A DNA stretch of 64,000 bases from a virus (Duplodnaviria > Caudoviricetes), in IMG/VR virus record IMGVR_UViG_3300032295_003763, positions 32,001-96,000 of that record, one strand, 5' to 3'. The translations under genes and the position numbers were made by a program. The notes under the pieces were generated by a model that worked only from the letters and a program-made list of their open reading frames with translations, was not told where the DNA came from and ran no database searches. Below, piece by piece: positions 2,097 to 52,818 of the stretch; the first letter of the stretch is position 1; each line of letters begins with the position of its first letter.

Positions 2097-3764
2097 ATGT
2101 TATCCTTTGAACAATTTCAGAGTATATTCGAATCGAGAAATCCCGAAAGCGTTTATACAAAAAACAAAGACTTGATGTCTAAAGATGGAAAACCACTTGA
2201 ACTTCAAGACGTAGAGAAAATATTTCAAGCTGATCCGTCAATACAGAAATCTTATGTAAACTGGTTAATTCAATTATATAGAAAAACTGATAAAAATTTG
2301 TTTTTTGAAGATTTATATAAGGCTACTAATTATCTTCAAATATATGATGACGCTAAGAAAAAGAACAAGATCGAAGATGAAAGAGCAAAAAATATTTCTA
2401 ATATCAAAACTCTTCCAGAACTCTTTAATATCATTGAGCCTTTCAAAGAAGATGAAACTAAACTTTTATCTAAAAAACAATTACGCGGAGACTCACCAGT
2501 TGAAGGTCAATATGAATTGATTTATTCTGATGACGAATGGGATGTAGTTATACCTAGAACGCACCCAGCTTCTTGTTATTGGGGTAGCGGTACACAATGG
2601 TGTACAGCAGTAGATGAAAATCCAAGTTATTTCAATGGATATACTAAAGATGGTCCCCTTTATATCTTTAGACATAAATCTGATAAAAAACTACGCTATC
2701 AATTACACTTTGAAAGTTCTCAGTTTAAAGATGTAAAGGATGATGAATATCCACCAATTTCAGTATTTGAAAAATACCCAGTATTAAAAAATGCATTGGT
2801 TGAGTATTGGAGTGAAAATCCAAAAGTATTGGAGAATAGCACCAAGAATCCTTTAAGTATGGTTTTAGATAGAGATTCAAAAGAATGGTCAGTATTTATA
2901 CCTATGATTATTGATTCTGGATATAATTTGAATAGCGAAGATACTAATGGTAATACAGTTCTTATTAATTTGTGTAAGAAACTTAAAGTTGAACTAATTG
3001 ATTTCGTTTGTTCAAAAGGTGCTGATCCTAAAAAGGCTAATGCAAAAGGTTTAACAGCACTTATGGCAGCAGTTGCAGCAACAGCTTCAAATATAAGCGG
3101 TAGACCATCTGTAAGTGATTTAGATACCTTAACATTGAAAGTTGCAGAAATCTTGTTTAAGTATGGTGCTGATGCAAGTGGTATAAATCCTAATGGTGCC
3201 CAAAGCACAGTATTTGAAGCAATCCTTCAGAACAAAATTCAAACTGCTTTGTTCTTGGTAGATAAAGACGGTTACGATGTTAATGCTCCTGATAATAAAG
3301 GAGATGCTGGCAGAAACTTAGCATTGTATTTACCAGGTTTGAATGTTACACCTACAGGTGCTAACTATTCTCTTAATTTTGATCAAGCTAAATTCTTTAT
3401 AGAAACTTTAATTAAAAAGGGATTAGATATTAATAAGATTAGCGAAAGTAATTTCTCTAATTCTCCACTTCATTTACTTTCACATTTTGCTGGTCTTCGT
3501 GCAAATGATAAAGCTGCTGTTGAAGTACTTTGTTTCATTGCTAAAATTCTCTTAGAGAATGGAGCAAATCCATGGTTAGAGGATAAGTCTAAAGGAATGA
3601 AAGTTAAATTAAGCGGAATGGAAGAACTTCCAAAATCTAATCTTTTAGCTATTGAAAAGCCAATTGGAAGACCAAAGAGTCCTGAAATGGTAGCATTATT
3701 AACAGAATATATGAAAAAGGCTAACCCAAGGAAGAAAATTCCTGCGGTTGATGTTTTAAGTTAA
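2097..3764 (+). CDS. WCTA-motif (possibly PcfJ-like) domain fused to ankyrin repeats; putative capsid-targeting leader
   Basis: ASCYWGSGTQWCTA motif; ankyrin-like repeats (GNTVLINLC, GLTALMAAV, NSPLHLL, LLENGANP). Leader MLSFEQFQSIFE if the start is ATG 2097 (the ORF track starts at 2067). Paralog of 6935-8173. Confidence 0.75.
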   Translation: MLSFEQFQSIFESRNPESVYTKNKDLMSKDGKPLELQDVEKIFQADPSIQKSYVNWLIQLYRKTDKNLFFEDLYKATNYLQIYDDAKKKNKIEDERAKNISNIKTLPELFNIIEPFKEDETKLLSKKQLRGDSPVEGQYELIYSDDEWDVVIPRTHPASCYWGSGTQWCTAVDENPSYFNGYTKDGPLYIFRHKSDKKLRYQLHFESSQFKDVKDDEYPPISVFEKYPVLKNALVEYWSENPKVLENSTKNPLSMVLDRDSKEWSVFIPMIIDSGYNLNSEDTNGNTVLINLCKKLKVELIDFVCSKGADPKKANAKGLTALMAAVAATASNISGRPSVSDLDTLTLKVAEILFKYGADASGINPNGAQSTVFEAILQNKIQTALFLVDKDGYDVNAPDNKGDAGRNLALYLPGLNVTPTGANYSLNFDQAKFFIETLIKKGLDINKISESNFSNSPLHLLSHFAGLRANDKAAVEVLCFIAKILLENGANPWLEDKSKGMKVKLSGMEELPKSNLLAIEKPIGRPKSPEMVALLTEYMKKANPRKKIPAVDVLS

Positions 3765-3793
3765 TTTGTTTATTTATATTTTGTGAGTTTGAT

Positions 3794-4384
3794 ATGTCTT
3801 TTTCCATGGATCAATTAATTTATACTTTAAATTATATTGATAAAACAGATTGGCCAGATGGCCCTTGGAAACTCGAACCTGATAAAATGTTGTGGATAGA
3901 TGATTCCACAGGTTATGAATGCTTAATAAAGAGAATTCGAAACATCAGTCATTTATGCGGTTATGTGGGTGTTACTAAAGAACACCCACTATACGGCACC
4001 TCCCTTTTACAGTTCAGAAGAGATGAAACGCTTGAAAAGTTTTTTGATGTCCATGGTAAAATTACAATGTCTTACCCTGGAAAGCTTTTCTCAGAAGAAC
4101 CTGGTCCAGATAATAAGTTAGGTAGGGCATTTATTGAAAATAGAGTTCATCCACAGGAAATCTGGTGGATCGGTATGGACTTTGTTCAGAATGAAGATAT
4201 TATACCAATAATATCTGATGATCCAAATGATAATAATGGTGAAAGAATCTACAGAGACATCGGATATGTAACAAAGGAAGTTACCAAACTAGCTTATCTT
4301 TTGAAAAAGTTTCATGAAGAATTCGATAGTGGTGAAATTAAATTTGAAAAATTAAATCATCCAATACCTAGTTGGGCATTATAA
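3794..4384 (+). CDS. Conserved phage hypothetical protein
   Basis: HLCGYVGV..HPLYG / DVHG.IT / WWIGMDF motifs typical of a widespread phage family of unknown function. Confidence 0.65.
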   Translation: MSFSMDQLIYTLNYIDKTDWPDGPWKLEPDKMLWIDDSTGYECLIKRIRNISHLCGYVGVTKEHPLYGTSLLQFRRDETLEKFFDVHGKITMSYPGKLFSEEPGPDNKLGRAFIENRVHPQEIWWIGMDFVQNEDIIPIISDDPNDNNGERIYRDIGYVTKEVTKLAYLLKKFHEEFDSGEIKFEKLNHPIPSWAL

Positions 4385-4397
4385 TTTAAGCAAATTT

Positions 4398-4937
4398 ATG
4401 ACAAAGGAACAATTTATCAAATATCTAAATGGTTCTTCTCAAGAAACTTTAGATACCTTAGCTTTTAAATCTACTATGAAGCTAGAATATCTTCAGTTTC
4501 TTAAGCTTTTAATTTCAAAACGATTTATAAACAACCCTAAAAATCGAGTAGGACAAAGTTTATTGCATACGTCAGTTATTCATAATAACGTAGAAGCATT
4601 ACGTTTCTTAATAGATTCTGGTCTTAATATTAATGAAACTGATGATGACTATAGAACGCCATTGCATCTATCAGTAATATATCCAGTTAATTCAGAAATA
4701 ATTTCTCTTTTAATTTCCAATGAAGCTGATATAAATGCTAAGACTGAAAGATTAGAAACACCTTTGTTTTTAGCATGTCAATCTAATAATACAGATGCAG
4801 CAAGGATACTATTAGAAACAAATAAATGCGATATTTCTTTTCCTAATGATTTAGGGCAAGAAGCGATGTTTTTAGCTTATAAAAATGATAATAAAGAGAT
4901 ACTAAGACTACTTAAAAAATTCAAAGAGGCAGTTTAA
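4398..4937 (+). CDS. Ankyrin-repeat protein
   Basis: GQSLLHTSV, RTPLHLSV, ETPLFLAC repeats with about 33-aa spacing. Confidence 0.9.
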   Translation: MTKEQFIKYLNGSSQETLDTLAFKSTMKLEYLQFLKLLISKRFINNPKNRVGQSLLHTSVIHNNVEALRFLIDSGLNINETDDDYRTPLHLSVIYPVNSEIISLLISNEADINAKTERLETPLFLACQSNNTDAARILLETNKCDISFPNDLGQEAMFLAYKNDNKEILRLLKKFKEAV

Positions 4938-5701
4938 TGTTTTCAGTTGTTATTCCAACACTCTGGCGTTCTCCATATTTATTAGATTTACTTAATTATT
5001 TAGATTCAATACATGAGATAGGTGAAATAATAATTATAGATAATGATCGAAATAAATCACAAAATTTAGATCAATTCTCAAAAGTAATACACATTAAAAA
5101 TCCTCAAAATAATTTTGTAAGTCCAAGTTGGAATCAAGGCGTAAAGTTAGCCTCATTCGATAAGATATGTCTCTTAAATGACGATGTTATTATACATAAA
5201 GATGTATTCTTATTGATGGATAATTTCATAAGCGAATCGGTAGGTTTAGTTGGTCTCTCTTCAGATGTCTATGAAAACTGTAAAGAATTTTTTAATAGTC
5301 TGGAAAAGCCTAGTAATTTAAAAATTTATCCAACTACTCAAAGAAACTTTGGATATGGGTGTTGTATGTTTATACACAAAAACAACTATAAGCATATACC
5401 AGATGAAATGAAAATTCAATACGGTGACGATTATATCTTTTACTCATTAGAGAAGATAAACTATGTTTTAGATGGGTTTACAATAGTAGGTAAAATCAGT
5501 GCGTCTCTATTAGATGAAAATTTACAAATCATAGATAAGGATTATGTAAATTCTATTTGTAAAAATGACCATAATGTATTCTGGAATGAAATGGAAAAAG
5601 GTGCCCTAACAAGAACACCTTTACACTCATACGACTCTGATAAACTTCAAGAATTATCTAATTATAAATGGAAATCTTCTAGTAACTATTATTTTGATTA
5701 A
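4937..5701 (+). CDS. Glycosyltransferase family 2
   Basis: FSVVIPT, EIIIIDND, SWNQG, LLNDD (DxD-like), YGDD. Confidence 0.85.
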   Translation: MFSVVIPTLWRSPYLLDLLNYLDSIHEIGEIIIIDNDRNKSQNLDQFSKVIHIKNPQNNFVSPSWNQGVKLASFDKICLLNDDVIIHKDVFLLMDNFISESVGLVGLSSDVYENCKEFFNSLEKPSNLKIYPTTQRNFGYGCCMFIHKNNYKHIPDEMKIQYGDDYIFYSLEKINYVLDGFTIVGKISASLLDENLQIIDKDYVNSICKNDHNVFWNEMEKGALTRTPLHSYDSDKLQELSNYKWKSSSNYYFD

Positions 5702-6288
5702 TCTTCAGATTTACCATACATTTCTTCAAAACTTTTAATGTGCTTACTCGTTCTGTGCATTTTTTTACCCTTTGTATCACCAGGTAATTCTTTATATGCT
5801 TCTGGATCATCATCAGGCATCTCTGCTTGTTTCTTCATCATTTCTTTCTTCTTCTCAATCGTAGATTTAGATAAACCTTTGAAATATTTATGTTCGCTTT
5901 CAGCTTCATTCGTTTTCTTTTTAATAAATTTCAATCCATCAGTATGTCCATTTCTAATGATGTCTTTAGCAACATCAGAATCTGATCCTCCTTTTGGATT
6001 TGATTTAGGACTACCCCACGTTGTCGATTTACCTGTCAAAAAACTTGCTAAACGAGCATAACCCCATTGTTGCTGACCAGCACCAGGTCTGTGTCCAGAT
6101 TTCCAAGCAGCCATTCCTCTTCTCATTATTATCCTCAAATAAGAAATTGGAACACCAGTAGTTTCTGATTTTTTCTTTAATGCCTTTTCAATAGCGGGAG
6201 AATCTATTGGAGAACGGTCCCCTTTAGCTTTATTTTCATTTAATTCATAGTCATTAATGAATTCTTCAAATAGTTTTATATTACTCAT
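5698..6288 (-). CDS. DUF5824-like protein with capsid-targeting-like leader
   Basis: RRGMAAWKSGHRPGAGQQQWGYARLASF motif; leader MSNIKLFEEFINDYELNE. Confidence 0.7.
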   Translation of the reverse strand: MSNIKLFEEFINDYELNENKAKGDRSPIDSPAIEKALKKKSETTGVPISYLRIIMRRGMAAWKSGHRPGAGQQQWGYARLASFLTGKSTTWGSPKSNPKGGSDSDVAKDIIRNGHTDGLKFIKKKTNEAESEHKYFKGLSKSTIEKKKEMMKKQAEMPDDDPEAYKELPGDTKGKKMHRTSKHIKSFEEMYGKSED

Positions 6289-6337: not shown

Positions 6338-6898
6338 TTATACCTTTAAAATGGCTTGCAGTTCTTTAGTTCCTGCGAACTCGTAGGGAGTTTCACCATG
6401 ATTATTTTGAATATCTCTATTGGCACCTGCATCTATAAGCATCAGGGCGATTTCTGGGCGATAATATTCAACAGCATAGTGTAATGCAGTATTACCAATT
6501 TCATCCTGTATATTCAAATCCGCCTTTGCATCAATCAACATTTGAACTATTTCTATGTAGTTCCATTTTGTAGCAAAAATCAAAGCAGTCCTACCTTTTT
6601 CATTTTGTACATTAACATCTACACCTGCATCTATAAGCATTTTTGCAATAATCTGCCTAATTTCTGTTCTATGGTCACTTGCAACCCAATGTAATATCGT
6701 ATTACCTTGATTAAAACCTTCTTCATCTTGCCAATCCAGCTTCGCACCTAATATAATTAAGTCCTGTATAAGATTGATATTTGGTTTATAAGATTGAACT
6801 TCACGTTTAATCATCTCAGCCTTCTTATTCGGTGGGATAATCATTAGTTCATAGGGGTCATGAGAATCAAAATCTTCAAAGAGTCGTAGATATTTCAT
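6338..6898 (-). CDS. Ankyrin-repeat protein with capsid-targeting-like leader
   Basis: GNTILHW, GRTALIFA, GNTALHYA, GETPYEFA; leader MKYLRLFEDF. N-terminus is paralogous to 35507-36187. Confidence 0.9.
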   Translation of the reverse strand: MKYLRLFEDFDSHDPYELMIIPPNKKAEMIKREVQSYKPNINLIQDLIILGAKLDWQDEEGFNQGNTILHWVASDHRTEIRQIIAKMLIDAGVDVNVQNEKGRTALIFATKWNYIEIVQMLIDAKADLNIQDEIGNTALHYAVEYYRPEIALMLIDAGANRDIQNNHGETPYEFAGTKELQAILKV

Positions 6899-37523: not shown

Positions 37524-37550
37524 CCCTCTTTTGAAAATATCAGAAGAGGG
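37524..37550 (-). terminator. Intrinsic terminator immediately followed by a late motif
   Basis: Hairpin ccctcttctga/tcaaaagaggg with U-tract; GATATATA at 37506-37513. Confidence 0.7.
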
Positions 37551-37571
37551 CTGGAAAATTATAAAATTTAT

Positions 37572-38504: not shown

Positions 38505-38508
38505 CTAT

Positions 38509-40029: not shown

Positions 40030-40064
40030 TGTTTTATAATTATTTTGTTCTTCTATATATCTGT

Positions 40065-40127
40065 ATAATAAAACTAGATATGCTCAATAAAGCAAAAAAC
40101 TTCATTGAGCATATTTTAGTTTATTAT
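40065..40127 (-). terminator. Long imperfect hairpin (probable terminator) followed by a late motif
   Basis: aaactagatatgctcaat...attgagcatattttagttt inverted repeat; GATATATA at 40054-40061. Confidence 0.6.
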
Positions 40128-40288
40128 TATTCTTCTAACAACTTATAAACTTCTGTGAAATCAAAGTTATTACCATCTTTTAGAATAGTAAAACTCATTT
40201 CTTTTTTATCTTCTTCGAAAAGAATAGAGTTACTTTCGTTTATTGTGTCATTTGAAAGAAAATCATTGAATTTTAATATTTTCATCAT
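40127..40288 (-). CDS. Small 53-aa protein missing from the ORF track, with capsid-targeting-like leader
   Basis: Hand translation MMKILKFNDFLSNDTINESNSILFEEDKKEMSFTILKDGNNFDFTEVYKLLEE*; fills the gap in the operon. Confidence 0.75.
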   Translation of the reverse strand: MMKILKFNDFLSNDTINESNSILFEEDKKEMSFTILKDGNNFDFTEVYKLLEE

Positions 40289-40300
40289 GTTTTATTATTT

Positions 40301-41719: not shown

Positions 41720-41734
41720 ATAATTTAGGTTTTT

Positions 41735-43828
41735 TTATCTATTTGCTAATGCCGCTTGCATTTGTTGTATATATCCCTGTGTCTGCTGTCTTTTTTGATA
41801 TTCTTCCTTAGAAATTGTACCCTCTAAGGAACTTTTAACTACTCCCGACAAATATTCTATCTGTTTAGCAATATAGTTAAGTGTTGGAAGATCAGCTTTA
41901 CCATTTATTTCTATTTCTGTACTTGTAGGTTTTGCATTCGTTTGGATAGAAGCTACAATTTTAGCCATCTCTTCATCATATTTACCATCAGCTTCGCCTG
42001 AATATATTCCAAGTTTTTTAAGACCCATTTGCAACATTTTAACATCCTCACCTTCATCACCGATCTGTATATACTTTCTTTCTTGACCTGTGCTATCCTT
42101 TCTGTTTGTAATACCAACAGGTTTATCGAGATTTTTACTATCTGCTGTTAAAGGTATTTTACCTTGATAGAACTCTTTTTCAAACACATGGAAAGCTGAT
42201 GAATAAGCAGATACTAGTCCCATTGTGACTAATCCTAGAGATGGGAGTTCATCATGATTCTCCCATTCCCGTTCTAAGCTATTCACAAAACTCATTGATG
42301 CGGTAGAATTTGCTTTAATATAATATGGAAAAGCTTCGCTATCTATTTGTTGTATACATTTTTGATAATCAGAATCTGACATGATTTTAGAATTATTCAA
42401 ACTAGTACACCATGCTTTAATTTTATCGGTAATATCTTGTGACTCTAATGATTTTTTAAAGCTTTCTCCAATTTCATCGAATGTAAAGAATGGTTCTAAT
42501 TTTTGATTTGCTAAATCCTTTTCAAAAACGGAAACTAATTCTCTCACTGGTTCTTTCGTAGTATCACTATCTGATTTTTCAAACCATTTTGCAATCCAAT
42601 ATATTCCATAAGCCATTCCTCCAAATTTTAATATACCCCAAGCAGCCGCTGGTATTTTAAAAATAAATCCACCTAAAGTAAATACATTAACTATAGCCTT
42701 AATGCTATCAGTTAAACCCTTTCTTAAATTTGTAAAGAATTTCCACAGACCTTTACCACCCCTGCCATCTGTTGTTTTGGTTTTTTTATTTTTTAAATTT
42801 TCACGGAATTTATCCCAAAATCCTTTCGCCTTTTCTCCCTCATTAGAATTAGCTGTAGGCATGCTTGGATCAGCTTTAGGTGTTGCATCTACATTTGGCG
42901 GTGAATCTACATCTGGAGTTTTTGTAGATGGCTTACCTTGTGTGTGAGTTGGATCAACATTACCAAGATTTATATTATCCGCATCTTGTTTAATTTTAGT
43001 TGTCGTATCCTTCAAAGCATCCTGTGCATCTTTAGGTGCTTTGCCTATATTCTCTGCAACATCATCAGCTGCGTTGGCGATTTTTTTTGCAGCATCATCA
43101 ACAGAACTAGATGGGGTATAATGCATACTATAAGTAAACGCTTTACCTGTTGATTGTGCAGCCCTCGCTGCATCATCAGAAGCTTTAGCAGCACCACCAA
43201 GTCCCTCACCACCTTTAAATAATTTACCTATTGCTTTTGTAAATGCTTCAAATCTCGATTCATTTACATATTCATACGATTCAGATGTATTTTGCCCTTT
43301 AGGTTCGATGACCGCTGTATTTAATGATTGAACTAATTGATTTACTGGTTCTTTAGATAGATACCAATTCACTAAAGAATTTCTAATTATAGTTCCTAAA
43401 GTAATTGGATTACTATTAAGAATTTTAGAAGTTTCTTCATCTATACCTTCTGAATTAAATTTTAAATCAGAATTAGCAGATGAATTTAAAATATTAGCAA
43501 TATTAGCAACATAATATTTAGCAGCAACTTCCAACATTAATGAATCTTTCTTAAGAGGTTCTGCAAAATCTAATTGTTCAGCTCTATCCTCATCCATTAT
43601 ACCCATAAGTTGAGCATAAATATTTGCTGGTATATTACCAATAGGAGTATTATAAAGTTTCTTAATATTCTCATCTATTTCTATACCCTCAGACCCAGGA
43701 ATACTTAAAAGAGGTTTTCCATATTCGGTAGCAAATTCAGAAGCAGGCTTAACTATCTTCTCATCGATCCATGATGGTAGACCTTCTTCATTTAACTTGT
43801 TTTCATATTCATTAAATCTCTTAATCAT
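41735..43828 (-). CDS. Putative internal virion protein with Gly/Ala-rich region, transmembrane hairpin and PG_binding_1 domain
   Basis: IQIGDEGEDVKMLQMGLKKLG...ADGKYD; hydrophobic AIVNVFTLGGFIFKIPAAAWGILKFGGMAYGIYWIA; leader MIKRFNEYENKLNE. Confidence 0.8.
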   Translation of the reverse strand: MIKRFNEYENKLNEEGLPSWIDEKIVKPASEFATEYGKPLLSIPGSEGIEIDENIKKLYNTPIGNIPANIYAQLMGIMDEDRAEQLDFAEPLKKDSLMLEVAAKYYVANIANILNSSANSDLKFNSEGIDEETSKILNSNPITLGTIIRNSLVNWYLSKEPVNQLVQSLNTAVIEPKGQNTSESYEYVNESRFEAFTKAIGKLFKGGEGLGGAAKASDDAARAAQSTGKAFTYSMHYTPSSSVDDAAKKIANAADDVAENIGKAPKDAQDALKDTTTKIKQDADNINLGNVDPTHTQGKPSTKTPDVDSPPNVDATPKADPSMPTANSNEGEKAKGFWDKFRENLKNKKTKTTDGRGGKGLWKFFTNLRKGLTDSIKAIVNVFTLGGFIFKIPAAAWGILKFGGMAYGIYWIAKWFEKSDSDTTKEPVRELVSVFEKDLANQKLEPFFTFDEIGESFKKSLESQDITDKIKAWCTSLNNSKIMSDSDYQKCIQQIDSEAFPYYIKANSTASMSFVNSLEREWENHDELPSLGLVTMGLVSAYSSAFHVFEKEFYQGKIPLTADSKNLDKPVGITNRKDSTGQERKYIQIGDEGEDVKMLQMGLKKLGIYSGEADGKYDEEMAKIVASIQTNAKPTSTEIEINGKADLPTLNYIAKQIEYLSGVVKSSLEGTISKEEYQKRQQTQGYIQQMQAALANR

Positions 43829-43837
43829 TAGATTTTC

Positions 43838-45058
43838 TTAATTTTGAGTCGCTACATCTTCTTCAGAGAAATCACTAATCAAATCATATATGACTTCCCC
43901 CAATATCCAAAATGCATAAATATTTAAAAGAAACATCACAATAGGTCCTGAACCTGGGATTATAATGTTAGATATAGATGCTATAATTGTATCTATAAGA
44001 ATATACTTTCCAAAATCTGATAAAGCATTTATTAAAATAGCAAATGTAGGCCCTAACATTTCAAATTTAAAAGGTCCATTTATCCCAAAATGTTCAGTTA
44101 AGAATTTTGAAGAATATTCAAGTGCTTCATTTCCATTTGCTTTAATATATTCTGAAAATTCCTTTATCCAACTAAATGGTGGCAAATTGTCTAATTTTTG
44201 TATACACCATTTATAAAAATCATCAATCATCTGTATAGATTCATCTAATCTTCTCATATCTTTAAAATTAGGAATCTTAATACTAATTAGATTTAATTTA
44301 GAATGATTATTTACATCTATTGCATTTTCTTTTATTGCATCTGGTATAAATGTTAATAAGTGTTCTTTAATGTTATTTTGAATTGAATTAACATTATCTG
44401 ATTCATTAACAACTTTATTAATAGACATAGTAACCTTTGAAGCAAAAACATCACCCTCGATAATTTTCCCGATGGATTCGACAAACATATTGCTCAATTG
44501 ACCTGTTTCTTTTGTTAATGATTCCCAAATAAATGCATTTTTATCAAACACATCTTCATTTAAAGATTCTTTAATTGAGTTAATCTGTTGATTTATGGAT
44601 ATAGTCATTTGTCTCTTTAGTGATCTATTCCCCGCAAACCATTTATTAGTTTCTATTTTTACACTGTCCCATGCAGTTTGTATACCTTCCATGATTTTAT
44701 CAACCACAGAGCTTATAGCTGACATTAAATTAGTCCCTAATTCAACTACCCAGTTAATAGCACCCTTCACAGCTTTCTTTGAAGGTTCTATAATATTTTT
44801 TTGAATAAAGTTTATAGCATCAGAATACAAATCTTCTTTCAATAATCCCCATTGATCGATTGATAATTGTCTTTCTGATATAAATTCCAAAACAAGCTTT
44901 TGCTCTCTTTCTAAATAAATATCTTCATTTCCCAATATACTTTCAGCTATCGGGATATATGAATTATTTTTAAAACCAAAATTATGCAATCTTTGGGATT
45001 GAAGATATTGGTCAAAATTTAATATAGTTTCTCTTTTAGGTATTTGCATAGACATCAA
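43838..45058 (-). CDS. Putative internal virion protein with C-terminal hydrophobic helices
   Basis: ILNFDQYL leader; amphipathic WVVELGTNLMSAISSVVDKIMEGIQTAW; C-terminal hydrophobic hairpin IIASISNIIIPGSGPIVMFLLNIYAFWIL. Confidence 0.7.
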   Translation of the reverse strand: MMSMQIPKRETILNFDQYLQSQRLHNFGFKNNSYIPIAESILGNEDIYLEREQKLVLEFISERQLSIDQWGLLKEDLYSDAINFIQKNIIEPSKKAVKGAINWVVELGTNLMSAISSVVDKIMEGIQTAWDSVKIETNKWFAGNRSLKRQMTISINQQINSIKESLNEDVFDKNAFIWESLTKETGQLSNMFVESIGKIIEGDVFASKVTMSINKVVNESDNVNSIQNNIKEHLLTFIPDAIKENAIDVNNHSKLNLISIKIPNFKDMRRLDESIQMIDDFYKWCIQKLDNLPPFSWIKEFSEYIKANGNEALEYSSKFLTEHFGINGPFKFEMLGPTFAILINALSDFGKYILIDTIIASISNIIIPGSGPIVMFLLNIYAFWILGEVIYDLISDFSEEDVATQN

Positions 45059-45119
45059 TAATTTATAGTTCTATATATCTTTTTTCAAACATGTGCTTTC
45101 AAGTTATTACCAACGATAT

Positions 45120-46097
45120 TTATCCCTGCCAACGAGATCTACTACTACCAACAGTATCTCTTACATCAACATGAACGAAGTTTGGATAAATCCCTAAACC
45201 ACCTTGATGGAACGAATCAACATAATTATAAAGTTCACTAGGTGTAACACCTGATATCGTTATATCTGCTGCGTTACCAAACATATGTTGAGATCTTGTA
45301 GCTACGCCTTTACTTTTACTTCTACTACGCAATCCAGCATTATATGATGGGGTTCTATATCCTGAATTTATGTTAATATCTTTTCCAAAATGTTCTCTTA
45401 TCTTCTCAAGTAATTCTATCAAATAAGGATTTATTAAAATTACATCAGATCCGTCTTTACAAGCAAATTCAGATACTTTGAAATTAGGAGAAAGGTTTTT
45501 ATCACCATCTTTACTGTTGCTATATTGTATAGATTTAGAAATGTATTGTTCAAATTCACTCGAAGGGTAATCAACACCTCTATTTACACCCTCACCCTTT
45601 GTAACCGAAGAAGCTGGTATTTGTATCTTCAAGTCTGGTGTTGGGGTGACAACAGCAGGTATTTTAGGTTCTTTAAGAACACCTTTTGTATCTTCTTCAC
45701 CTTCTTTAGATTCAAATTCCAATAAAAATTTTATGAATGACAATGGAATTTGATTTTCAATCTGTATAGGTAAATTAAAATCTTTAGATATAGTTTTAGC
45801 TGCATCTAAAGTTACTTGATCTAAAAGTCCATCTGCACTATGATTCTTGAGGTATCCTAATCCAATCAAAATAGATTGTAGAACTGAAATGTCTTGACTT
45901 CTATCATTTACATTTAAGACCTTTAAACCATCTATAAGCTCTTGTGAGAAATATTCTCTAGTTATCTCTTTAATTAGGTCACTCTTCTCTTTTTTATCAG
46001 ATTTACTTGTAATTAAACCAATAGCTTCTTGTGCATTTTGAATTTGTACTTCGTTTAAAACAAATTCACCAAAGCTGTATATTTTCTTTCTATTCAT
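45120..46097 (-). CDS. PG-binding domain + M15A-type (Peptidase_M15_3) Zn peptidase
   Basis: VLQSILIGLGYL..ADG; SPNF.VSEFACKDG, INSGYR, SQHMFGNAADI, FVHVDVR; leader IYSFGEFVLNE. Confidence 0.9.
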   Translation of the reverse strand: MNRKKIYSFGEFVLNEVQIQNAQEAIGLITSKSDKKEKSDLIKEITREYFSQELIDGLKVLNVNDRSQDISVLQSILIGLGYLKNHSADGLLDQVTLDAAKTISKDFNLPIQIENQIPLSFIKFLLEFESKEGEEDTKGVLKEPKIPAVVTPTPDLKIQIPASSVTKGEGVNRGVDYPSSEFEQYISKSIQYSNSKDGDKNLSPNFKVSEFACKDGSDVILINPYLIELLEKIREHFGKDININSGYRTPSYNAGLRSRSKSKGVATRSQHMFGNAADITISGVTPSELYNYVDSFHQGGLGIYPNFVHVDVRDTVGSSRSRWQG

Positions 46098-46102
46098 AAG
46101 TA

Positions 46103-47059
46103 TTAAGCTATCATATTTTGAGAATCTACTCTCGACAATTCAAAGTGCATACCGTCCTTTCTTCTATTAAAATGACCACCCCAAAAGAACCCAAGTTTTA
46201 GTGCCGCTGGGACTAATTCCCTAACACTACCCTTTTCACCAACAGCTGGGGGCATCTTACCTAAAGGATTACTACGTGTGTTAATGTCAAATGCTATACC
46301 GAAAGCATGAGGACTTAAAGTACTTTGAGTTCCCCTAATTACTCTAGGGACAAAGCATCCTGCCCAGTTTTCTATTTTGCTCAAAAGTCCAAGATTTTCC
46401 CATTCTTGCCAAAGTGCAAGTATTGGTTTTGCAGCAAGTCTATGGCAACGAATTTTAGTGAGTTTAGGAGGATTTTGTATTTTAGACAATTGCGGTAAAT
46501 CTATTGTAATAATATTTTCTTTTACAAAATTATTTTGAACAGTAATATAATCACCTGATGCCTTTACCCATACAATTTTTCCGAATAAATTTTCCTTTTC
46601 AACTAAATTTAATGAATGTATATCAGTTGGTTTTGGTGGCCAGTTGTATTTACCATCTTTATACTTAGGATCATCGTATGAATCCTTTTTTTTATCAGTA
46701 GAAAATTCAAGCTCACTTGATTGATATGTTGTAAATAAATCTATAACTTCTTTAGATATAGGTTTATTCACATCTACTGATACATTAGACTTAGAAGCAA
46801 ATTTTTTAATAGCTTCCATAGTCGTTTGATCCAGTTGCCCACTCATTTGTGATGCTGACAAATACCCTAACCCTAATAATAAAACTTGAATTATTTTTAC
46901 ATCCTGTGTAGTTTCATTAAAATTAATATCAGAACTACCCTTTTGTAAGTTTGAAGATATAAATCCCTTACTAACCTGTTGAACAATTTCAGATTTTTCC
47001 TTTGAGCTTTTGGAATTCTTTAAAGAATCTATAATATCCCTAGGTGTCTCTAATTTCAT
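46103..47059 (-). CDS. PG-binding domain + M15C-type (Peptidase_M15_4) Zn peptidase
   Basis: IIQVLLLGLGYL...TMEAIKKF; R.IRG, LSPHAFGIAFDIN, FFWGG.F..KDGMHFE. Confidence 0.9.
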   Translation of the reverse strand: MKLETPRDIIDSLKNSKSSKEKSEIVQQVSKGFISSNLQKGSSDINFNETTQDVKIIQVLLLGLGYLSASQMSGQLDQTTMEAIKKFASKSNVSVDVNKPISKEVIDLFTTYQSSELEFSTDKKKDSYDDPKYKDGKYNWPPKPTDIHSLNLVEKENLFGKIVWVKASGDYITVQNNFVKENIITIDLPQLSKIQNPPKLTKIRCHRLAAKPILALWQEWENLGLLSKIENWAGCFVPRVIRGTQSTLSPHAFGIAFDINTRSNPLGKMPPAVGEKGSVRELVPAALKLGFFWGGHFNRRKDGMHFELSRVDSQNMIA

Positions 47060-48849
47060 TTTTTAGATCCTATTATTTTATTATAAACGAAAGGAAATAT
47101 CGTTGGATCTTCATTTATTAAGTAGTCTGAAAATATTTCAGATGCTTTATCTAAATCACTAGAAATATAATAAGAACCTGGTTTATCTTTAAATTCAACA
47201 AACACTGTTTCTAATAATTTTACCTTTTTATCATCAGGAAATTTAGCAAAATTATAAACGATCGTTTTTATTGTGGTAATAACATCATCCTCATTAGTCG
47301 AAGATGTTAATATTTCGGAAATTTGAGGTATATTTTTACCTGATATTTTATTCTTTAACTTGTCTAAAACTGTTTTTGAGAAATTAGCAGTTTGTATAGT
47401 ATTTTGAATCTGTGTAGGCTCAGATTTTTCTTCAGTAGTTTTATTAGTTTCTTCTTGATTTTTAATATCTGATTCAATGTTTGTTATATCATCACTAGAT
47501 ACATCACTCGAATCTTTAAAAAACTTTATCAATTCTTGTATAATCGTTTCATCAGTCCATATAAGATTAGATAATTTAGTCGCTAATGTTTCTAAACTCA
47601 AATCTGATTTTATTACTTTTTGATCATCTTTACTTTGAAACATCGTATCCGAAATATTGGATGATTTCAAATAGTCAATCTTATTTACAAGTATGTCTTT
47701 TATGAAGTTATTAAGTACCTTTTTCCCACTTTCTTCATCCATGGATTCAAAGATATTTAAAACCATTTTTTGCTTTATATTAGAAGAATCTTTTTTGGCT
47801 CTTTTTATAACTCCATTTAAAAATGCTTCTGTTGTAAAGTTACCTATATTTTCCACAAGATCACTACTTAAAGTCTCTTCGGTTTTCTTGATTTCTTCTG
47901 GTGTTTCTTTTGGAATATCCTTTACTTCTGGAGTTATTGGCTCAGTTGCTGATACCTTTTGATCTTCTTCCTTTTTAACTTCTTCTTCAGCCTCAACTGA
48001 AGCATTAGCAATATCTTCGATTTGATCTTCACTCTTACTCTTCAATTCTGCGTTCCAAGAATCCCATTGTGCTTTTCTGTCAACTGAAGGTTTTCCAAAA
48101 ATAGCAACAGGACCTTCGATTGATTCTAATTTAAAATTGATTATTTCAGCATTTTCAAATTTATTATTCTTGAATAATTTAAGTAGTGACTCATAAGGAA
48201 TTTGAACAGCATTCGCTAAAGTAGTCAAGAATATAAAACCAGGTGTACTATTTTGTTGGTCATAATCATATCCTGGATACTTCACTAGAAAATGTGTAAC
48301 CTGAAAAATAGCATTGTCATAATTTATCTCTTCAGAATCTACATCTCCGCCTTTAATCCAAGACATAAAATCTGAAAAAAATGATTCAGAAACATAACTA
48401 TCATATACTCTCCTATTACCATATCTATCATAATAGTATTTAGATGAAGATCTTCTTCTTTTAGGATACTTTTCATATCCAACTAAATAATCATGTAAAC
48501 TATCGATATTAGGACTATATGACTTTGTGAATTTTGGATCCTTAGATTTAGTTGTAGGCATTAATACTACAAGATCACCTTTCCATGTATTCGAATTAAC
48601 GCGAAACGTCTTCATTGTTTCATAGTTGATAGAATTAATAAAATTCTTTAGATACTTTTCAGTAACTACAATAGACTCTGCCATTTTTTTAAGAGGGCAT
48701 AAACCAGGTAGCATGTGTTTAGAATCGAATCCAAATTGAGGATTCATATCAAGAAAGTTTTGAATTCTAGATACTACGTTATCTATTTCTTTTTTCTTTC
48801 TGTTTTTTAAAAAATCAAAAAATGATTCGCTAACATTCGAATATCTCAT
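47056..48849 (-). CDS. Putative internal virion protein with internal repeats
   Basis: Two N-terminal units that each start VSE|SFF; two C-terminal repeats (..SL/DL..[LA]...[LF]S..[IL]..[DE]..I); acidic linkers. Confidence 0.7.
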   Translation of the reverse strand: MRYSNVSESFFDFLKNRKKKEIDNVVSRIQNFLDMNPQFGFDSKHMLPGLCPLKKMAESIVVTEKYLKNFINSINYETMKTFRVNSNTWKGDLVVLMPTTKSKDPKFTKSYSPNIDSLHDYLVGYEKYPKRRRSSSKYYYDRYGNRRVYDSYVSESFFSDFMSWIKGGDVDSEEINYDNAIFQVTHFLVKYPGYDYDQQNSTPGFIFLTTLANAVQIPYESLLKLFKNNKFENAEIINFKLESIEGPVAIFGKPSVDRKAQWDSWNAELKSKSEDQIEDIANASVEAEEEVKKEEDQKVSATEPITPEVKDIPKETPEEIKKTEETLSSDLVENIGNFTTEAFLNGVIKRAKKDSSNIKQKMVLNIFESMDEESGKKVLNNFIKDILVNKIDYLKSSNISDTMFQSKDDQKVIKSDLSLETLATKLSNLIWTDETIIQELIKFFKDSSDVSSDDITNIESDIKNQEETNKTTEEKSEPTQIQNTIQTANFSKTVLDKLKNKISGKNIPQISEILTSSTNEDDVITTIKTIVYNFAKFPDDKKVKLLETVFVEFKDKPGSYYISSDLDKASEIFSDYLINEDPTIFPFVYNKIIGSKK

Positions 48850-48858: not shown

Positions 48859-49323
48859 TTATATTTCTTCGTGGCTCAATACTGCAAATTTTGATTCACC
48901 AACTTCTTCAATTGGCATATTCTCTTCAGAACTAATGAATCTGATAGTTGCATCTTGTAATAAATATTTCCCAGCAGGAAATGAATTGTTGAGATTGTTT
49001 TTTGTTGTATATTTAATCAAAAGCTCAATCTCTTTAGCATTAGATTTACCAGCCAAATTAGCAATCACAAGATTAATTTGAGCATATTCAATCGAAGGTC
49101 CGAATATACCTAAACCTGCTCCAGTAACTGGATTTGAAATGAAAGTCTGACTATCACCATAATCTCTATGTAAAGAAAGAATCTCAATCTTTACTTTATA
49201 TGGTTTTAATACAACACTATTAATGTGTTTTTTGATAGATTCTAAATCTTCCTTTAAAGGTTCACCCGCTACTGATTTAGCCTCATTGACCTTTTGTTCC
49301 TTGTATTCCTTAAAAATTCTCAT
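48859..49323 (-). CDS. Putative internal virion protein
   Basis: Leader MRIFKEYKEQKVNE; GATATATA at 49351-49358. Confidence 0.7.
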   Translation of the reverse strand: MRIFKEYKEQKVNEAKSVAGEPLKEDLESIKKHINSVVLKPYKVKIEILSLHRDYGDSQTFISNPVTGAGLGIFGPSIEYAQINLVIANLAGKSNAKEIELLIKYTTKNNLNNSFPAGKYLLQDATIRFISSEENMPIEEVGESKFAVLSHEEI

Positions 49324-49393: not shown

Positions 49394-51022
49394 TTATACT
49401 GCAGGTTCTTCTGTTGCCGCACCCGTATCTACAGGTTCATCTCCTGGTTGATCTCCTGCCTTCTTTTCCTTTTCCTTAATCATCGATCTGTTTTCTTGCA
49501 ATTCTTCACGAGTTAAGTTCAAGAATGCTTCCATTGCAAAATCCAAATCGAAATAAGAATCGTCTTTTGTTCTAGGAATATTGAGCAATTCATTGATTGC
49601 AGATATACGCTTTTGCATAACTTCAACCTTTCTTTGAACTTCAAAACTATTATCACGATTAAACTTTATACCTATACTTGATCTAAACAGGTGATCCCCT
49701 TCAAATTCAGGATATTTCATAATTAATTGTAAAACCAAAGGCTTTAACATAACTTCTTGGAATCCAGAACGAAGTCTATTGATAAAGTTACCAAATCTTA
49801 CCTCATCTCTTTGAATACCATCTGCACCCAAACTCATTGATGCTCCACCATCTGCAAATCGACTTAATGGTATTTTAGATGCTCTTCTAAGTTTTAATTC
49901 AAAATATTTTAAGAAATCAGGGTTTGATAAATCAACACCTTGACCACCAATAACCTCAACATTTGGAGAGTTTCCATCTTTCGAAGGGAACATAAAGTGC
50001 TTGAAGAATGGGATAGAAGGTCTACCATTGATTGATAAAGTACCATCCGCATCGTTGAAAAATATTTCTTCTTTATAATTATTTAGAATTTCAGATAGCT
50101 CTTGCTTTGCCTTTTGTGGAGAATTACTACCGATAGGGATGGTCATCTTCAAACGAAACTGAGCATACATGATATGCCACATAACCTTTGAGTTCTCAAT
50201 CAATCTCAAAAGATTTAAAGGACGTACAAGACGCTCAACGTAACTTACACGATCCATTTGTAAGTTTTGAGCATAAGCTATATAAATAACTGAAGAATCA
50301 TAAATAATCCTTGAGGATTCATTTCCAATCTTTTGAATCCAAACTATGTATTCTTCCCCATCTTCACCAACAATAGTTGATAATTCTAAAGTAGCTGGAT
50401 CTAATTTATTCAAAGCGATAACATCTTCGCCATCTTCATCCGTTACAATTTCGAATGCTAAGAATCCATCTATCAAATATTGTCTAAATAAATTCCAAGC
50501 TTTAGTATTATTGTTAAATCCGAATTTCACATAAAGCTTACGGAATTCTTCATGTATAACATCAAGAATTTCTTCTTTTTTATCTTCACTAAGAAATGAT
50601 TCTAAGCCCTTTGTATCTGGATAGCAGAACCAGTTTTTATCATCATATACAATTGCTTCATCAGCAATCGTATCCAATATCTCTACAACTTCATCATTTA
50701 GTGAAAATGAACGCAAGAAATCTCTCTTACCTACATAATTTGAATCATAAATCGCAAGTGCCTTTAAACCTCCGATATCTTGCATAGCCATAGCAGCAAG
50801 TAATCTCTGATCCCATTGAGAAGAACCATAACCACCATAAACTGAATGTCCAAGTGCACCTGAGCCACCTGCGTTGGTTTCAGTTTCACCAGCACCTTGC
50901 CTTCTTTGAATGATCAAATCATCATAATACATACCGAAAGAAGATAACTTTCTTACATTGTCAGCTGGACCTGATGTAAAGTTATATGTTCTCATTCCAT
51001 CTTTAGAAACAAAACCTGCCAT
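49394..51022 (-). CDS. gp20: T4 gp20-like portal protein
   Basis: ILDTIADEAIVYD, FRQYLIDG, SYVERL.RP.N.LRLIE, LKYF..KL.RASKIP.SRF, IQRDEVRF..FINRLR..F. Confidence 0.93.
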   Translation of the reverse strand: MAGFVSKDGMRTYNFTSGPADNVRKLSSFGMYYDDLIIQRRQGAGETETNAGGSGALGHSVYGGYGSSQWDQRLLAAMAMQDIGGLKALAIYDSNYVGKRDFLRSFSLNDEVVEILDTIADEAIVYDDKNWFCYPDTKGLESFLSEDKKEEILDVIHEEFRKLYVKFGFNNNTKAWNLFRQYLIDGFLAFEIVTDEDGEDVIALNKLDPATLELSTIVGEDGEEYIVWIQKIGNESSRIIYDSSVIYIAYAQNLQMDRVSYVERLVRPLNLLRLIENSKVMWHIMYAQFRLKMTIPIGSNSPQKAKQELSEILNNYKEEIFFNDADGTLSINGRPSIPFFKHFMFPSKDGNSPNVEVIGGQGVDLSNPDFLKYFELKLRRASKIPLSRFADGGASMSLGADGIQRDEVRFGNFINRLRSGFQEVMLKPLVLQLIMKYPEFEGDHLFRSSIGIKFNRDNSFEVQRKVEVMQKRISAINELLNIPRTKDDSYFDLDFAMEAFLNLTREELQENRSMIKEKEKKAGDQPGDEPVDTGAATEEPAV

Positions 51023-51040
51023 AATATTCTCTTATTATTA

Positions 51041-51652
51041 TCAATTTGATTGAATTTCGGAAACACTTTTTCCAACTATACCGAATGGTATTAAGAGGGG
51101 TATCCATTTCCAATCTTCATAATCTATCGGTATAACGGATCCACTTCTTAGTTTTGACCAAATGAAAGCATCTGATTTTTTACTTACATTTAATCCCATA
51201 CTACTTATATATCCTTTTAAAAAATCGGTCATTCCTTCTACAGAAAATTGTGATAAATCACCCTTTTCTATCCTTTTAGTATTCTCTTCGATATATCTTC
51301 CAAAAAAACTTATAGCACCATCAATAAATATAGCTCTTTGAGTCGAATTAAAATAATTCATATTAATTCCAAATAGCATATTATCAACATTTTTATACTG
51401 AACAGTTTCAGTATGGAATACTATTGGGAATACATCAAAGTAACCTCTTTTAGGTAAATTTTTATTGTCATTTATTGCCATATAAATCTTACCAGAAGGT
51501 ATCATACTCGGTATCATGTAAATCTTATCCTTTATAGGATGTTTCTGCATTAAATACTTCTGCCTGAACCATTCTTGAAGTTCTTCTCCTAGTACTTTAC
51601 TAGCTTCAGATAAACCGCCCTTTAATGTTTCTACTGCTTCTGCTTTAATCAT
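51041..51652 (-). CDS. gp2: T4 gp2-like DNA end protector
   Basis: GKIY, YFDVFPIV, FGINMNY, DW..IP.L; ATGA overlap with gp4 (start at 51652). Confidence 0.7.
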   Translation of the reverse strand: MIKAEAVETLKGGLSEASKVLGEELQEWFRQKYLMQKHPIKDKIYMIPSMIPSGKIYMAINDNKNLPKRGYFDVFPIVFHTETVQYKNVDNMLFGINMNYFNSTQRAIFIDGAISFFGRYIEENTKRIEKGDLSQFSVEGMTDFLKGYISSMGLNVSKKSDAFIWSKLRSGSVIPIDYEDWKWIPLLIPFGIVGKSVSEIQSN

Positions 51653-52140
51653 TTGAATGGCCAGTTTTCTTCTGTTAATACAACATATTTCATGTCTCTG
51701 TCCATAGCCCATTTTATAGCAGCTATCTGTTTTGCTTTATTGACAGTATACATTTTCGTTAATTCAGCATGTCGCATTAGTTTCTTATCAGTTATTCGAC
51801 CTTCTAAAACAGGTTCTCTCGATATTTGTGCACTTGGTTTTATTTCAACAATATATCTATGCCTTTTATTATCATTATCAATAACTTCAATGAAAAAATC
51901 TACATTATAAATATGTTCTTTGTGATCTATTGGACTGATGTATTTAATCTTCACTGGTTCAGAACCCCATCTAATAATTTGAGGAGTTAAATCGCACAAT
52001 ATCATAAATTTACGTTCCCAGGAAGAACGAAATATAACTACCCTCGGATCACCTGCATATTTTTCAGGATTATTAACTTTGTAATAACCTTGAACAAATG
52101 GCCCACTGGAGTTAGGTTTTAATTTTTTTATGTCTTTCAT
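51649..52140 (-). CDS. gp4: T4 gp4-like head completion nuclease (TnsA-like PD-(D/E)XK fold)
   Basis: QGYY..NPEKY.GD, FRSSWERKFM..CD, WGSEP..I.Y.SP.D, YNVDF, VEIKP, NKAK..AA, LTE. Confidence 0.9.
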   Translation of the reverse strand: MKDIKKLKPNSSGPFVQGYYKVNNPEKYAGDPRVVIFRSSWERKFMILCDLTPQIIRWGSEPVKIKYISPIDHKEHIYNVDFFIEVIDNDNKRHRYIVEIKPSAQISREPVLEGRITDKKLMRHAELTKMYTVNKAKQIAAIKWAMDRDMKYVVLTEENWPFK

Positions 52141-52201
52141 GAACTAAATTATCTATTTATGATATATATTCATATTTTATGTTACATTGCAATTAAACGA
52201 T

Positions 52202-52576
52202 ATGTCTGATAAAAAATTCCTAAAACAAGCTAATAATGTATTAAAAGAAATACAAAAAGAGCTGATTAGCCCCGAAGAAGAAGAAGTCTTTAAGAAAGTA
52301 GCAGAAAGACTTAATGTTTCATATGAGACTGAAAAGGCAAACGAAGATAAGGAAAATAAAGAAATAAAACCAATTAAAAGGAATATTCTTTTAGATCCTG
52401 ATACTTTGGTATTTGCAAATCAAGCCTTATTACTAAGAGCTATACTTTCAAATGATATGGCTAGAAAAGAAAATCTTTCAGAATTTGTTAAGAATCTCAT
52501 CAAAGAAGAGTGGAAAAGGCTTTTCGTTACATATGAAAATATGAGTAATGAGATAGAAAAAGAAAAAAACAAATAA
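52202..52576 (+). CDS. Hypothetical protein, possibly ribbon-helix-helix-like C-terminus
   Basis: ATG 52202 downstream of GATATATA 52161-52168; KRNILLD...NLSEFVKNLIKEEW. Confidence 0.55.
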   Translation: MSDKKFLKQANNVLKEIQKELISPEEEEVFKKVAERLNVSYETEKANEDKENKEIKPIKRNILLDPDTLVFANQALLLRAILSNDMARKENLSEFVKNLIKEEWKRLFVTYENMSNEIEKEKNK

Positions 52577-52626
52577 TTGAAGTAAATAAAACTGATATAT
52601 AAAGTAAGCTTAAAATATAATATATT

Positions 52627-52818
52627 ATGAAAACTTTTACACAAACAACAAATCAAATCAGAAAAAAACTATTTGAAATGGATAATGAAGCAGCTAGAGA
52701 AACATCTGCTAGAAATTATCTCCAAAAGTTATATGAATTCGATATCAAGTCTATTACTGAATTGAATGAAGATGAATTAAAAGATTTTATCAAAAGTTTA
52801 AGAGTTATAGAGGGCTAA
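52627..52818 (+). CDS. Small protein with T4 IP-like leader
   Basis: MKTFTQ...KLFE; GATATATA at 52594-52601. Confidence 0.65.
   Translation: MKTFTQTTNQIRKKLFEMDNEAARETSARNYLQKLYEFDIKSITELNEDELKDFIKSLRVIEG

Follow-up and report, generated by a model that had tools for sequence, protein, structure and literature searches.

What is the purpose of a short N-terminal leader that recurs on otherwise dissimilar proteins of a single phage? The window analyzed here (the whole 64,000-nucleotide stretch, i.e. bases 32001-96000 of the 199,927-bp IMG/VR virus contig IMGVR_UViG_3300032295_003763) raises this question, as enzymes, repeat proteins and proteins with no assigned domain encoded in it start in much the same way. 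We conclude, with a probability of about 0.7, that this shared N-terminus is a T4-type capsid-targeting propeptide on an unusually large and varied set of cargo proteins; judged from the sequences, dozens of different proteins are probably packaged along with the DNA of this phage.

The comparison is with the capsid-targeting sequence (CTS) of phage T4. In the T4 record, ipII and ipIII start with MKTYQEFIAE and ipI with MKTFKEF, which confirms the leader that an earlier, sequence-only reading of the window had given for IPII and IPIII. Residues 4 and 7 of the T4 CTS serve targeting and residues 8 and 10 serve processing, with the cut after L/I-x-E (PMC9026906), and it is the gp21 prohead protease that takes the CTS off IPI, IPII and IPIII (Mullaney and Black 1996, as described in the reviews PMC9026906 and PMC3012670). 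It is already established that the internal proteins of T-even phages are diverse and share only the CTS (PMC3012670, PMC9026906). We note that T4 gene 61.1 (NC_000866, 18966-19130) encodes a 54-residue hypothetical protein, gp61.1, which starts with MKTFKEFIKE, a near-perfect CTS.

The leader is enriched at N-termini beyond the expectation from composition

The leader (or tag) consists of an aromatic pair, [FYW]-x-x-[FYW], within residues 1-15, usually followed 0-15 residues later by [LIV]-x-E, mostly in the form L-N-E. It occurs in two registers: in one, that of MRNFKEF, MKEFKEY and MRIFKEY, the pair takes residues 4 and 7, precisely the T4 positions, and in the other, the most common, it takes residues 7 and 10 (MKYLKLFENWLNE, MKYIKLFEEF). 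All 23 N-termini quoted in the sequence-only reading are present at their start coordinates, that at 2097 being an internal ATG of the open reading frame (ORF) 2067-3764 and that at 37483 a GTG. Graded by eye and by regular expression, about 18 of the 23 are strong (2097, 6288, 6898, 20415, 27099, 28973, 29099, 34790, 35495, 36187, 37483, 38504, 40029, 40288, 43828, 45058, 46097, and 49323), one (41719) has only a conserved [LIVFY]-N-E/SF site at residues 25-27 (here and below, a slash marks the predicted cut), and four are weak (20413, which starts MVTFQEL, 30560, 33452, and 52627). Three strong examples (6898, 28973, and 36187) have no canonical [LIV]-x-E near the pair; in 36187, the nearest ends at residue 30. 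Across the whole contig, which here means 218 ORFs and half a genome by completeness estimate, we curated ~34 leaders (~16% of ORFs). The regular expression gave 31 matches with [LIV]-x-E within 18 residues of the pair, some of them by chance (e.g. gp32). The tags are 10-30 residues long, rich in Glu, Asp, and Asn, and contain no hydrophobic stretch. A Sec or lipoprotein signal peptide was ruled out, as the tags are acidic and lack the hydrophobic core of 10-15 residues that follows a basic N-region in such peptides; ordinary signal peptides are present on other proteins of the contig (e.g. 13451-17971).

The strict core [FY]x[EDNQS][FYW] was observed 22 times at positions 5-9, compared with ~3.7 expected from the internal rate, and the heptad [FYW]xx[FYW][LIVMF]xE was observed at 10 N-termini, compared with 1.1-1.3 in shuffles that preserve N-terminal composition, including shuffles of the first 26 residues only. 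A position weight matrix (PWM) trained on one genome half and tested on the other distinguished N-termini from internal blocks (Fisher p 1e-4 to 1e-6), and [LIV]NE was 3-fold enriched at residues 4-30 (p 3e-6), whereas [LIV]N[DQK] was not enriched. The sequence-only reading had proposed a motif search on N-termini against shuffled and internal controls; when an expectation-maximization search of this kind was run, the N-termini scored highest, with a log-likelihood of 290, compared with 226-239 for shuffled N-termini and 186-199 for internal windows. A looser form of the pattern was found at 14.2% of N-termini and in 4.5% of internal windows in this contig, at 14.6% and 3.4%, respectively, in its relative G001, and at 9.0% and 4.3% in the first 400 kb of the huge-phage record LR756500. 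The corresponding values were 4.5% and 3.4% for T4, 3.6% and 4.4% for cellular loci with a GC content below 36%, and 1.9% and 4.2% for 45 kb of Tenacibaculum phage PTm1. Because these cross-genome controls lie at or near background, we conclude that AT-rich codon bias is not the cause of the tag. Such a bias, which the sequence-only reading had named as one finding that would undo its proposal, is excluded by the controls together with the shuffles.

The leader sits on mostly unrelated proteins and appears to be an add-on

When the first 25 residues were removed, BLAST joined only the ankyrin family, one three-member family (two of whose members lie at window 38509 and 40301), and two pairs. 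This indicates that the leader proteins are, at the level of sequence similarity, mostly unrelated to one another, and so few links rule out a single paralogous family as the source of the shared leader. By Pfam, the tagged set in the window comprises three ankyrin-repeat proteins, a DUF5824 protein, a phosphoribosyltransferase-like protein, a flavodoxin-like protein, three peptidoglycan-binding proteins, an M15 peptidase, and several proteins without an assigned domain. A RimK-type ATP-grasp protein and another peptidoglycan-binding protein are tagged outside the window; in the RimK-type protein, the first Pfam domain starts at residue 23, just after METKTILDYSSFLNE/S. The different Pfam families bear out the proposal that the leader stands on diverse enzymes and repeat proteins. 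Of the claim that more than 20 unrelated proteins carry it, the mostly unrelated nature of the carriers stands, but the count is nearer 18 and some tagged proteins are paralogues.

The tag is absent from ThyX, guanylate kinase, UDP-glucose dehydrogenase, the UvsW helicase, an amidase, the portal, the capsid protein, and the sheath. The sequence-only reading had stated that the replication proteins, ThyX, Gmk, Ugd, and the baseplate proteins lack the leader, which holds for the Pfam-confirmed ThyX, Gmk, Ugd, and UvsW helicase; however, gp32, likewise identified by Pfam, matches the regular expression, and Pfam and PHROGs did not confirm a baseplate identity for the ORFs at 53-64 kb. The gp32 homologue (window 24627-25589) starts with MGTNFDIFDVTSADIKE, and we take its match as a chance event that shows the false-positive rate. 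In the 613-residue UDP-glucose dehydrogenase (window 16771-18612), the match to the central domain is in two parts, and ~200 unmatched residues stand between it and the C-terminal domain, a gap that points to an inserted element or an extra domain.

For the flavodoxin-like protein (34047-34790), the tag can be compared with untagged relatives; more than 2,400 members of its family are detectable. Cellular members (from Sulfurovum, other Campylobacterota, Methanoregula, CPR bacteria, and DPANN archaea) start 17-26 residues before a TTSNRW core and carry no tag, whereas the phage protein has 33 residues before TTSNRW, made up of the 11-residue tag MKNITPFSLFE and 22 more. Other members on metagenome contigs have the same core behind variant tags (MSRFLKLLEE, MIKFENLLKE, KTFEQF, and MKSFLEFYNLLE among them). 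In the AlphaFold model of the phage protein (mean pLDDT 87), residues 1-9 have values below 50, and the fold begins near residue 19. Taken together, the sequence comparison and the predicted structure indicate that the tag is portable and lies outside the folds of its carriers. The description of the leader as grafted onto its carriers thus has direct support from the untagged cellular homologues of the flavodoxin-like family, and this direct support is limited to that one family. We note that the family shares TTSNRW and CEGNVS..GNxCG..RCW motifs with three invariant Cys residues (loci L129-L208) and also occurs on many uncharacterized metagenome contigs, which may be phage.

Tagged orthologues were only 31-64% identical in genomes whose portals were 85-93% identical, and the aromatic pair and the Glu were still kept (loci L016-L018 compared with window 40301-48849). 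Orthologues of the M15 peptidase, for instance, start with KKIYSFGEFVLNE, KKIYNYEEFVLNE, FILKFSDFVLNE, and RILTYDKFNLNE, and those of the 697-residue protein start with MIKRFNEYENKLNE, MITRFNKYEQKLNE, and MITRFNAYERKLNE. The disparity with the portals implies that turnover of the presumed cargo is very fast. The 154-residue protein encoded after the portal is far better conserved than the other tagged proteins (78-88%). Codons for identical residues vary between tags, and we therefore conclude that selection acts on the peptide.

A T4-type head and a protease-scaffold fusion bearing the same heptad

By its head genes, the phage belongs to the T4 superfamily. The contig (GC 31%; CheckV completeness estimate 52%) encodes a T4-type portal, gp20 (PF07230, E 7e-67; window 49394-51022, minus strand), a gp23-type major capsid protein (PF07068; contig 164687-166429), and, by Pfam, a T4-type large terminase. 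Megablast of 15 kb against GenBank phages gave no nucleotide match, and relatives were detected at the protein level only: the nearest portal records are those of uncultured 460-735-kb "huge phages" (LR756500-LR756504 and LR745206), followed by the Prevotella Lak phages, and portal relatives in IMG/VR form a close set at 85-93% identity and a large clade at ~40%. The host is probably a member of the Bacteroidota.

The contig encodes, outside the window, a gp21-type protease of the Peptidase S77 family (PF03420, E 3e-11; contig 166459-168477, L007:12462-14477, minus strand). Of its 672 residues, 1-171 form the protease domain, and in an alignment to the T4 gp21 structure 5JBL, the catalytic His (LDHP) and Ser (SSRA) are in place. 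All 18 relatives in the alignment have H77 and S132/S133 unchanged, and the same holds for an R-x-N-E site where the protease meets a scaffold-like C-terminal extension of ~470 residues. Within this extension, residues 255-464 consist of fourteen 14-residue units, 12 of which match Y-x-x-[YH]-[LIV]-x-E (e.g. YSNYLAE, YTEYIAE, and YADYIAE). The core of the T4 tag, YQEFIAE, has the same heptad pattern as these repeats. The protease fusions of 31 distinct relatives contain 6-10 heptads each, compared with 0.1-0.2 in shuffles. In the AlphaFold model, the repeat region forms long helices, with low confidence; an acidic linker, also of low confidence, comes next, and then a C-terminal helical domain that is better defined. 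PHROGs labels the whole fusion as a head maturation protease, and ORF300 of PTm1 is annotated as "prohead core scaffolding protein and protease". No separate homologue of the T4 scaffold protein gp22 was found on the contig, which is estimated to be 52% complete. In the 45 kb of PTm1 examined, there were neither extension heptads nor tag enrichment; this double absence, a single case, fits a link between tag and repeat.

The portal of this phage lies more than 100 kb away from the protease and capsid genes. In the ~40%-identity clade (loci L025, L054, L057, L066, L082, and L083), the portal gene is followed by that of a small tagged protein (MKTIKTFEQFISE/A) and then by those of the protease-scaffold fusion, the capsid protein, and a tagged protein of 400-460 residues, which is the T4 order 20-67/68-21/22-23 with T4-like tags. 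The 113-residue post-portal tagged protein of that clade and the 154-residue post-portal protein of this phage showed no similarity to each other.

A candidate late promoter is enriched upstream of tagged genes

The motif GATATATA is found ~20-60 nucleotides upstream of 54 genes of the contig, including the tail sheath and fibre genes. It precedes 19 of the 34 tagged genes but only 35 of the 184 others (odds ratio 5.4, p 2e-5), so that the genome-wide check of its co-occurrence with the leader, suggested in the sequence-only reading, came out positive. Examples in the window lie upstream of 49323, 45058, 40029, 37483, 34790, 33452, and 29099. Many of the tagged genes without a copy of their own are situated downstream in the same gene runs. 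From its sequence and distribution, GATATATA is a plausible candidate for a late promoter, comparable with TATAAATA of T4. The contig also encodes a small sigma factor candidate (contig 113524-113868; Sigma70_r2, E 4e-5, just under the Pfam cut-off) with an N-terminus that we take to be gp55-like.

Tagged and candidate genes in the window

The portal gene, which carries no leader, heads a minus-strand run from 49323 down to ~33452 in which almost all genes are tagged; in T4, the prohead core genes 67 and 68 occupy the same post-portal position. A gene for a gp2-like DNA end protector (51041-51712, minus strand; phrog_429), also without the leader, lies just upstream of the portal. The first gene after the portal (48859-49323) encodes the 154-residue protein with the leader MRIFKEYKEQKVNE/A and is followed by a weak candidate (47056-48849; 597 residues), which starts with MRYSNVSESFFDFLK and has a conserved but atypical aromatic cluster. 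Then come the M15 peptidase (45120-46097; KKIYSFGEFVLNE/V, with the pattern present in four of four distinct orthologue N-termini), a 406-residue protein (43838-45058) with the pair ILNFDQY and a conserved YIPIAE/S ~20 residues further on, and the 697-residue peptidoglycan-binding-domain protein (41735-43828; MIKRFNEYENKLNE/E, kept in orthologues). The 472-residue protein at 40301-41719 has NE/SFSGG, preceded by [LIVFY], at residues 25-27 and no clear aromatic pair; it is a paralogue of the peptidoglycan-binding-domain protein at 38509-40029 (MLFKNFYNNHDQFRLNE/S), and between the two lies a gene for a 53-residue protein (40127-40288; MMKILKFNDFLSNDTINE/S). Further along the same strand are a 310-residue protein without an assigned domain (37572-38504; KILNYSQFISE/N, an exact heptad), a peptidoglycan-binding-domain protein (36197-37483; MITRYSKFKEAKLNE/I), an ankyrin-repeat protein (35507-36187; MKYIKLFEEF), a 149-residue protein without an assigned domain (35046-35495; MLTSFIDFLHNKLDTSLNE/L), and the flavodoxin/FMN-reductase-like protein described above (34047-34790, minus strand; MKNITPFSLFE/A). 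A 523-residue protein (31881-33452, minus strand), which starts with MKKMKYLLGLNE/Y and has L-N-E only, is a weak candidate.

In the portal-adjacent minus-strand run at 36197-47059, PG_binding_1 occurs in three tagged proteins, and there are also two M15 peptidases; the untagged protein at 46103-47059 has a weak PG_binding_1 match below the Pfam cut-off. By their domains, these wall-directed proteins look like a head-borne wall-breaching set.

The remaining tagged genes lie further from the portal. Those on the plus strand encode an ankyrin-repeat protein (2097-3764; Ank_2, MLSFEQFQSIFE/S, with an alternative start at 2067 and GATATATA upstream), a 189-residue protein (20415-20984; TLNFVEFFEIILSE/E) and a 473-residue protein (27099-28520; MITNLIEFQFCKILE/S), both without an assigned domain, and a phosphoribosyltransferase-like protein (29099-29788; MRNFKEFLTLLSE/S, in the register of T4 ipI, MKTFKEF). 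Those on the minus strand encode a DUF5824 protein identified by Pfam (5698-6288; MSNIKLFEEFINDYELNE/N), an ankyrin-repeat protein (6338-6898; MKYLRLFEDF, the pair only, with no canonical cut site nearby), and a 143-residue protein without an assigned domain (28542-28973; MKKYFLLFEEF, the pair only). A HAD-like protein (30560-31144, plus strand; MKYIKRLDE) has no aromatic pair and is a weak candidate. Two further weak N-termini, those of a 604-residue protein (18599-20413, minus strand; MVTFQEL) and a 63-residue protein (52627-52818, plus strand; MKTFTQTT..KLFE/M), were excluded from the tagged count.

A model for packaging, and the alternatives

We propose the following scheme by analogy with T4. 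Tagged proteins would be made late, alongside the head proteins, and the tag would form a short helix-prone segment, with its two aromatic residues, three apart, corresponding to residues 4 and 7 of the T4 CTS. This segment would dock its carrier onto the scaffolding core during prohead building, the core being the long helical C-terminal extension of the gp21-type protease with its 14-residue heptad-bearing repeats. The protease would then cleave [LIV]-x-E sites behind their Glu, in the scaffold repeats as well as where the tags end, and the mature proteins would be freed inside the head and would exit with the DNA at infection. [quoted passage not shown] The peptidoglycan-binding and M15 proteins encoded by the portal would fit a role in crossing the wall at entry, and the tagged enzymes and ankyrin proteins would fit early host take-over or counter-defence. 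A more specific version of the scheme, in which the tag is one scaffold repeat unit, such that the cargo co-assembles as a pseudo-scaffold subunit and is released by the same cut, is a tentative extension that we consider somewhat less than an even bet.

Several observations weigh against these proposals. About a third of the curated tags (~10 of 34) carry no canonical [LIV]-x-E shortly after the aromatic pair, the loose regular expression also matches gp32 (likely a false positive), and about half of the tagged genes lack a GATATATA of their own. The tagged genes at 20415, 27099, 28973, and 29099 stand among replication and metabolism genes. [LIV]-x-E shows no depletion in the mature portions of tagged proteins (ratio 1.2), and the test is therefore uninformative. 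With respect to the repeat, a weight matrix built from the scaffold repeats retrieves the tags weakly (p 0.005-0.09), so that the likeness between tag and scaffold holds at the level of the pattern and not residue by residue; the tags prefer F/F and L-N-E, and the repeats Y/Y and L-A-E. Further, T4 gp22, gp67, and gp68 were checked for the aromatic heptad and none has it; the gp23 cut site FGSFLTE/A alone carries it. As T4 gp22 has no aromatic-pair repeats, copying of a scaffold repeat is not needed for a working CTS.

Of the alternatives to a packaged and injected cargo, the one that fares best accepts targeting and cutting but holds that most tagged proteins are components of the assembly phase and not injected effectors, i.e. 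accessories of the core or scaffold that are degraded and expelled like T4 gp67 and gp68, or structural proteins of the head interior, such that the injected proteome would be much smaller than the tag count. The protein at 48859-49323 suits this account, as it occupies the 67/68 position of T4 and, at 78-88%, is conserved above the other tagged proteins; so do the small tagged proteins (53-154 residues) without a recognizable domain, and the core proteins of T4 are indeed cut to fragments that leave the head (PMC9026906). However, the tagged set includes many folded enzymes and repeat proteins, 200-700 residues long, with no obvious role in assembly, they evolve fast, like the internal proteins of T-even phages, and their peptidoglycan-binding and M15 domains suit a role at entry. 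We regard this alternative as unlikely.

Less likely still is that the tag has nothing to do with the capsid and is an amphipathic helix (for a membrane or replication compartment, or for recognition by a chaperone or protease) or, at the nucleotide level, an aid to translation starts that lack a Shine-Dalgarno sequence. AT-rich and A-rich 5' coding ends are common in the Bacteroidota, packaging is itself something that we infer, approximately half of the tagged genes are without a late-type motif of their own, and several stand among metabolism genes, all of which could speak for such a function. On the other hand, the residues are constant while the codons vary, and AT-rich cellular DNA and PTm1 lack the tag. 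The capsid protein, sheath, and portal, which are abundant late proteins, are untagged, and the tag is therefore not a general feature of expression. Further, the genome encodes a matching protease, the same heptad fills the scaffold region, and the tag is acidic, with too little hydrophobicity for a signal peptide. The tag also matches the T4 CTS at the positions that matter, with aromatic residues at 4 and 7 and then [LI]-x-E (PMC9026906). Finally, chance or codon bias, by which an AT-rich genome would yield many K, N, I, F, Y, L, and E residues at its gene starts, enough for the eye to see a pattern, is very improbable: the GC content of 31%, the occurrence of the loose pattern in 4-5% of internal windows, and the weakness of some of the 23 N-termini lend it something, but it is contradicted by the shuffles (1.3 heptads with composition kept, compared with 10 observed), the PWM (p 1e-4 to 1e-6), the background or near-background rates in AT-rich cellular loci, PTm1, and T4, the retention of the pattern in orthologues, and the enrichment of [LIV]NE but not [LIV]N[DQK].

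Relation to known packaging systems

The leader resembles the T4 CTS in being an N-terminal tag of ~10-20 residues with the same aromatic spacing, in some cases in the same register (MRNFKEF, MKEFKEY, and MRIFKEY compared with MKTYQEF and MKTFKEF), usually followed by [LIV]-x-E, and in standing on otherwise unrelated carriers in a genome with genes for the gp21-type protease, gp20 portal, and gp23 capsid protein. It differs in scale, with T4 having three internal proteins as well as Alt, compared with ~34 tagged proteins in half a genome here, and in cargo, which here includes recognizable enzymes, ankyrin proteins, and peptidoglycan hydrolases. It also differs in form, as the commonest pair here is at 7/10, the residue before Glu is mostly Asn (L-N-E) and not Ala, and the spacer extends up to ~15 residues. 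Moreover, its function in this phage, which has a probable Bacteroidota host, is predicted from sequence. A second parallel is the polymorphic locus for internal proteins in T-even phages (Repoila et al. 1994, cited in PMC3012670), as there, too, according to that source, fast-changing unrelated genes share only a targeting tag and can be read as arms-race cargo. As far as that account goes, the T-even locus holds a few small proteins of the anti-restriction type, whereas here the tagged genes are spread over the contig, with a long run by the portal, and many encode large multi-domain proteins.

The phiKZ-like phages (201phi2-1, phiKZ, and SPN3US) pack many proteins, and a distant gp21 homologue cuts these after Glu; their propeptides are thought to direct proteins to the prohead, and mass spectrometry has identified 19 processed proteins in 201phi2-1 and 8 in SPN3US (PMC5694885, PMC9026906). 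The propeptides of these phages are mostly far longer, often more than 100 residues, and have no common consensus and an S/A-x-E cut. We therefore do not assign the proteins described here, with their tags of 10-30 residues, [LIV]-x-E, and T4-type head genes, to the phiKZ-type class of processed inner-head proteins. PTm1 ORF300 resembles the protease fusion of this phage in having an N-terminal S77 protease and a long scaffold-like C-terminal extension and in lying beside the capsid gene, but its extension contains other repeats and no Y-x-x-Y-[LIV]-x-E heptads. Full-text literature searches found no paper that ties huge phages of this clade to capsid targeting. The novelty lies in the scale (~16% of ORFs), in the types of protein that serve as cargo, in the lineage (Mahaphage/Lak-related phages together with the broad 40%-identity clade), and in the heptad-repeat scaffold.

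Implications

If the tags work as in T4, a rule of ~12 residues would allow metagenomes to be read for the proteins that a whole clade of uncultured huge phages packages and probably injects. The predicted set would be several-fold larger than that of T4 and larger than the sets proven by mass spectrometry in phiKZ-like phages, and phages that deliver enzymes together with their DNA would be taking over the host, or countering its defences, in a new way. To our knowledge, how the CTS is recognized is still unsolved in T4, and the heptad-repeat scaffold gives a testable physical rationale for this recognition. In practice, the T4 protein-packaging toolbox could also be extended to other hosts. 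If the tag is a scaffold unit, any gene that gains ~12 codons behind a late promoter would become head cargo, and the origin of the T4 CTS would be explained. In that case, the huge phages of Bacteroidota could have built the largest known packaged set, in which metabolic-type enzymes and wall hydrolases would be among at least 34 proteins encoded in half a genome.

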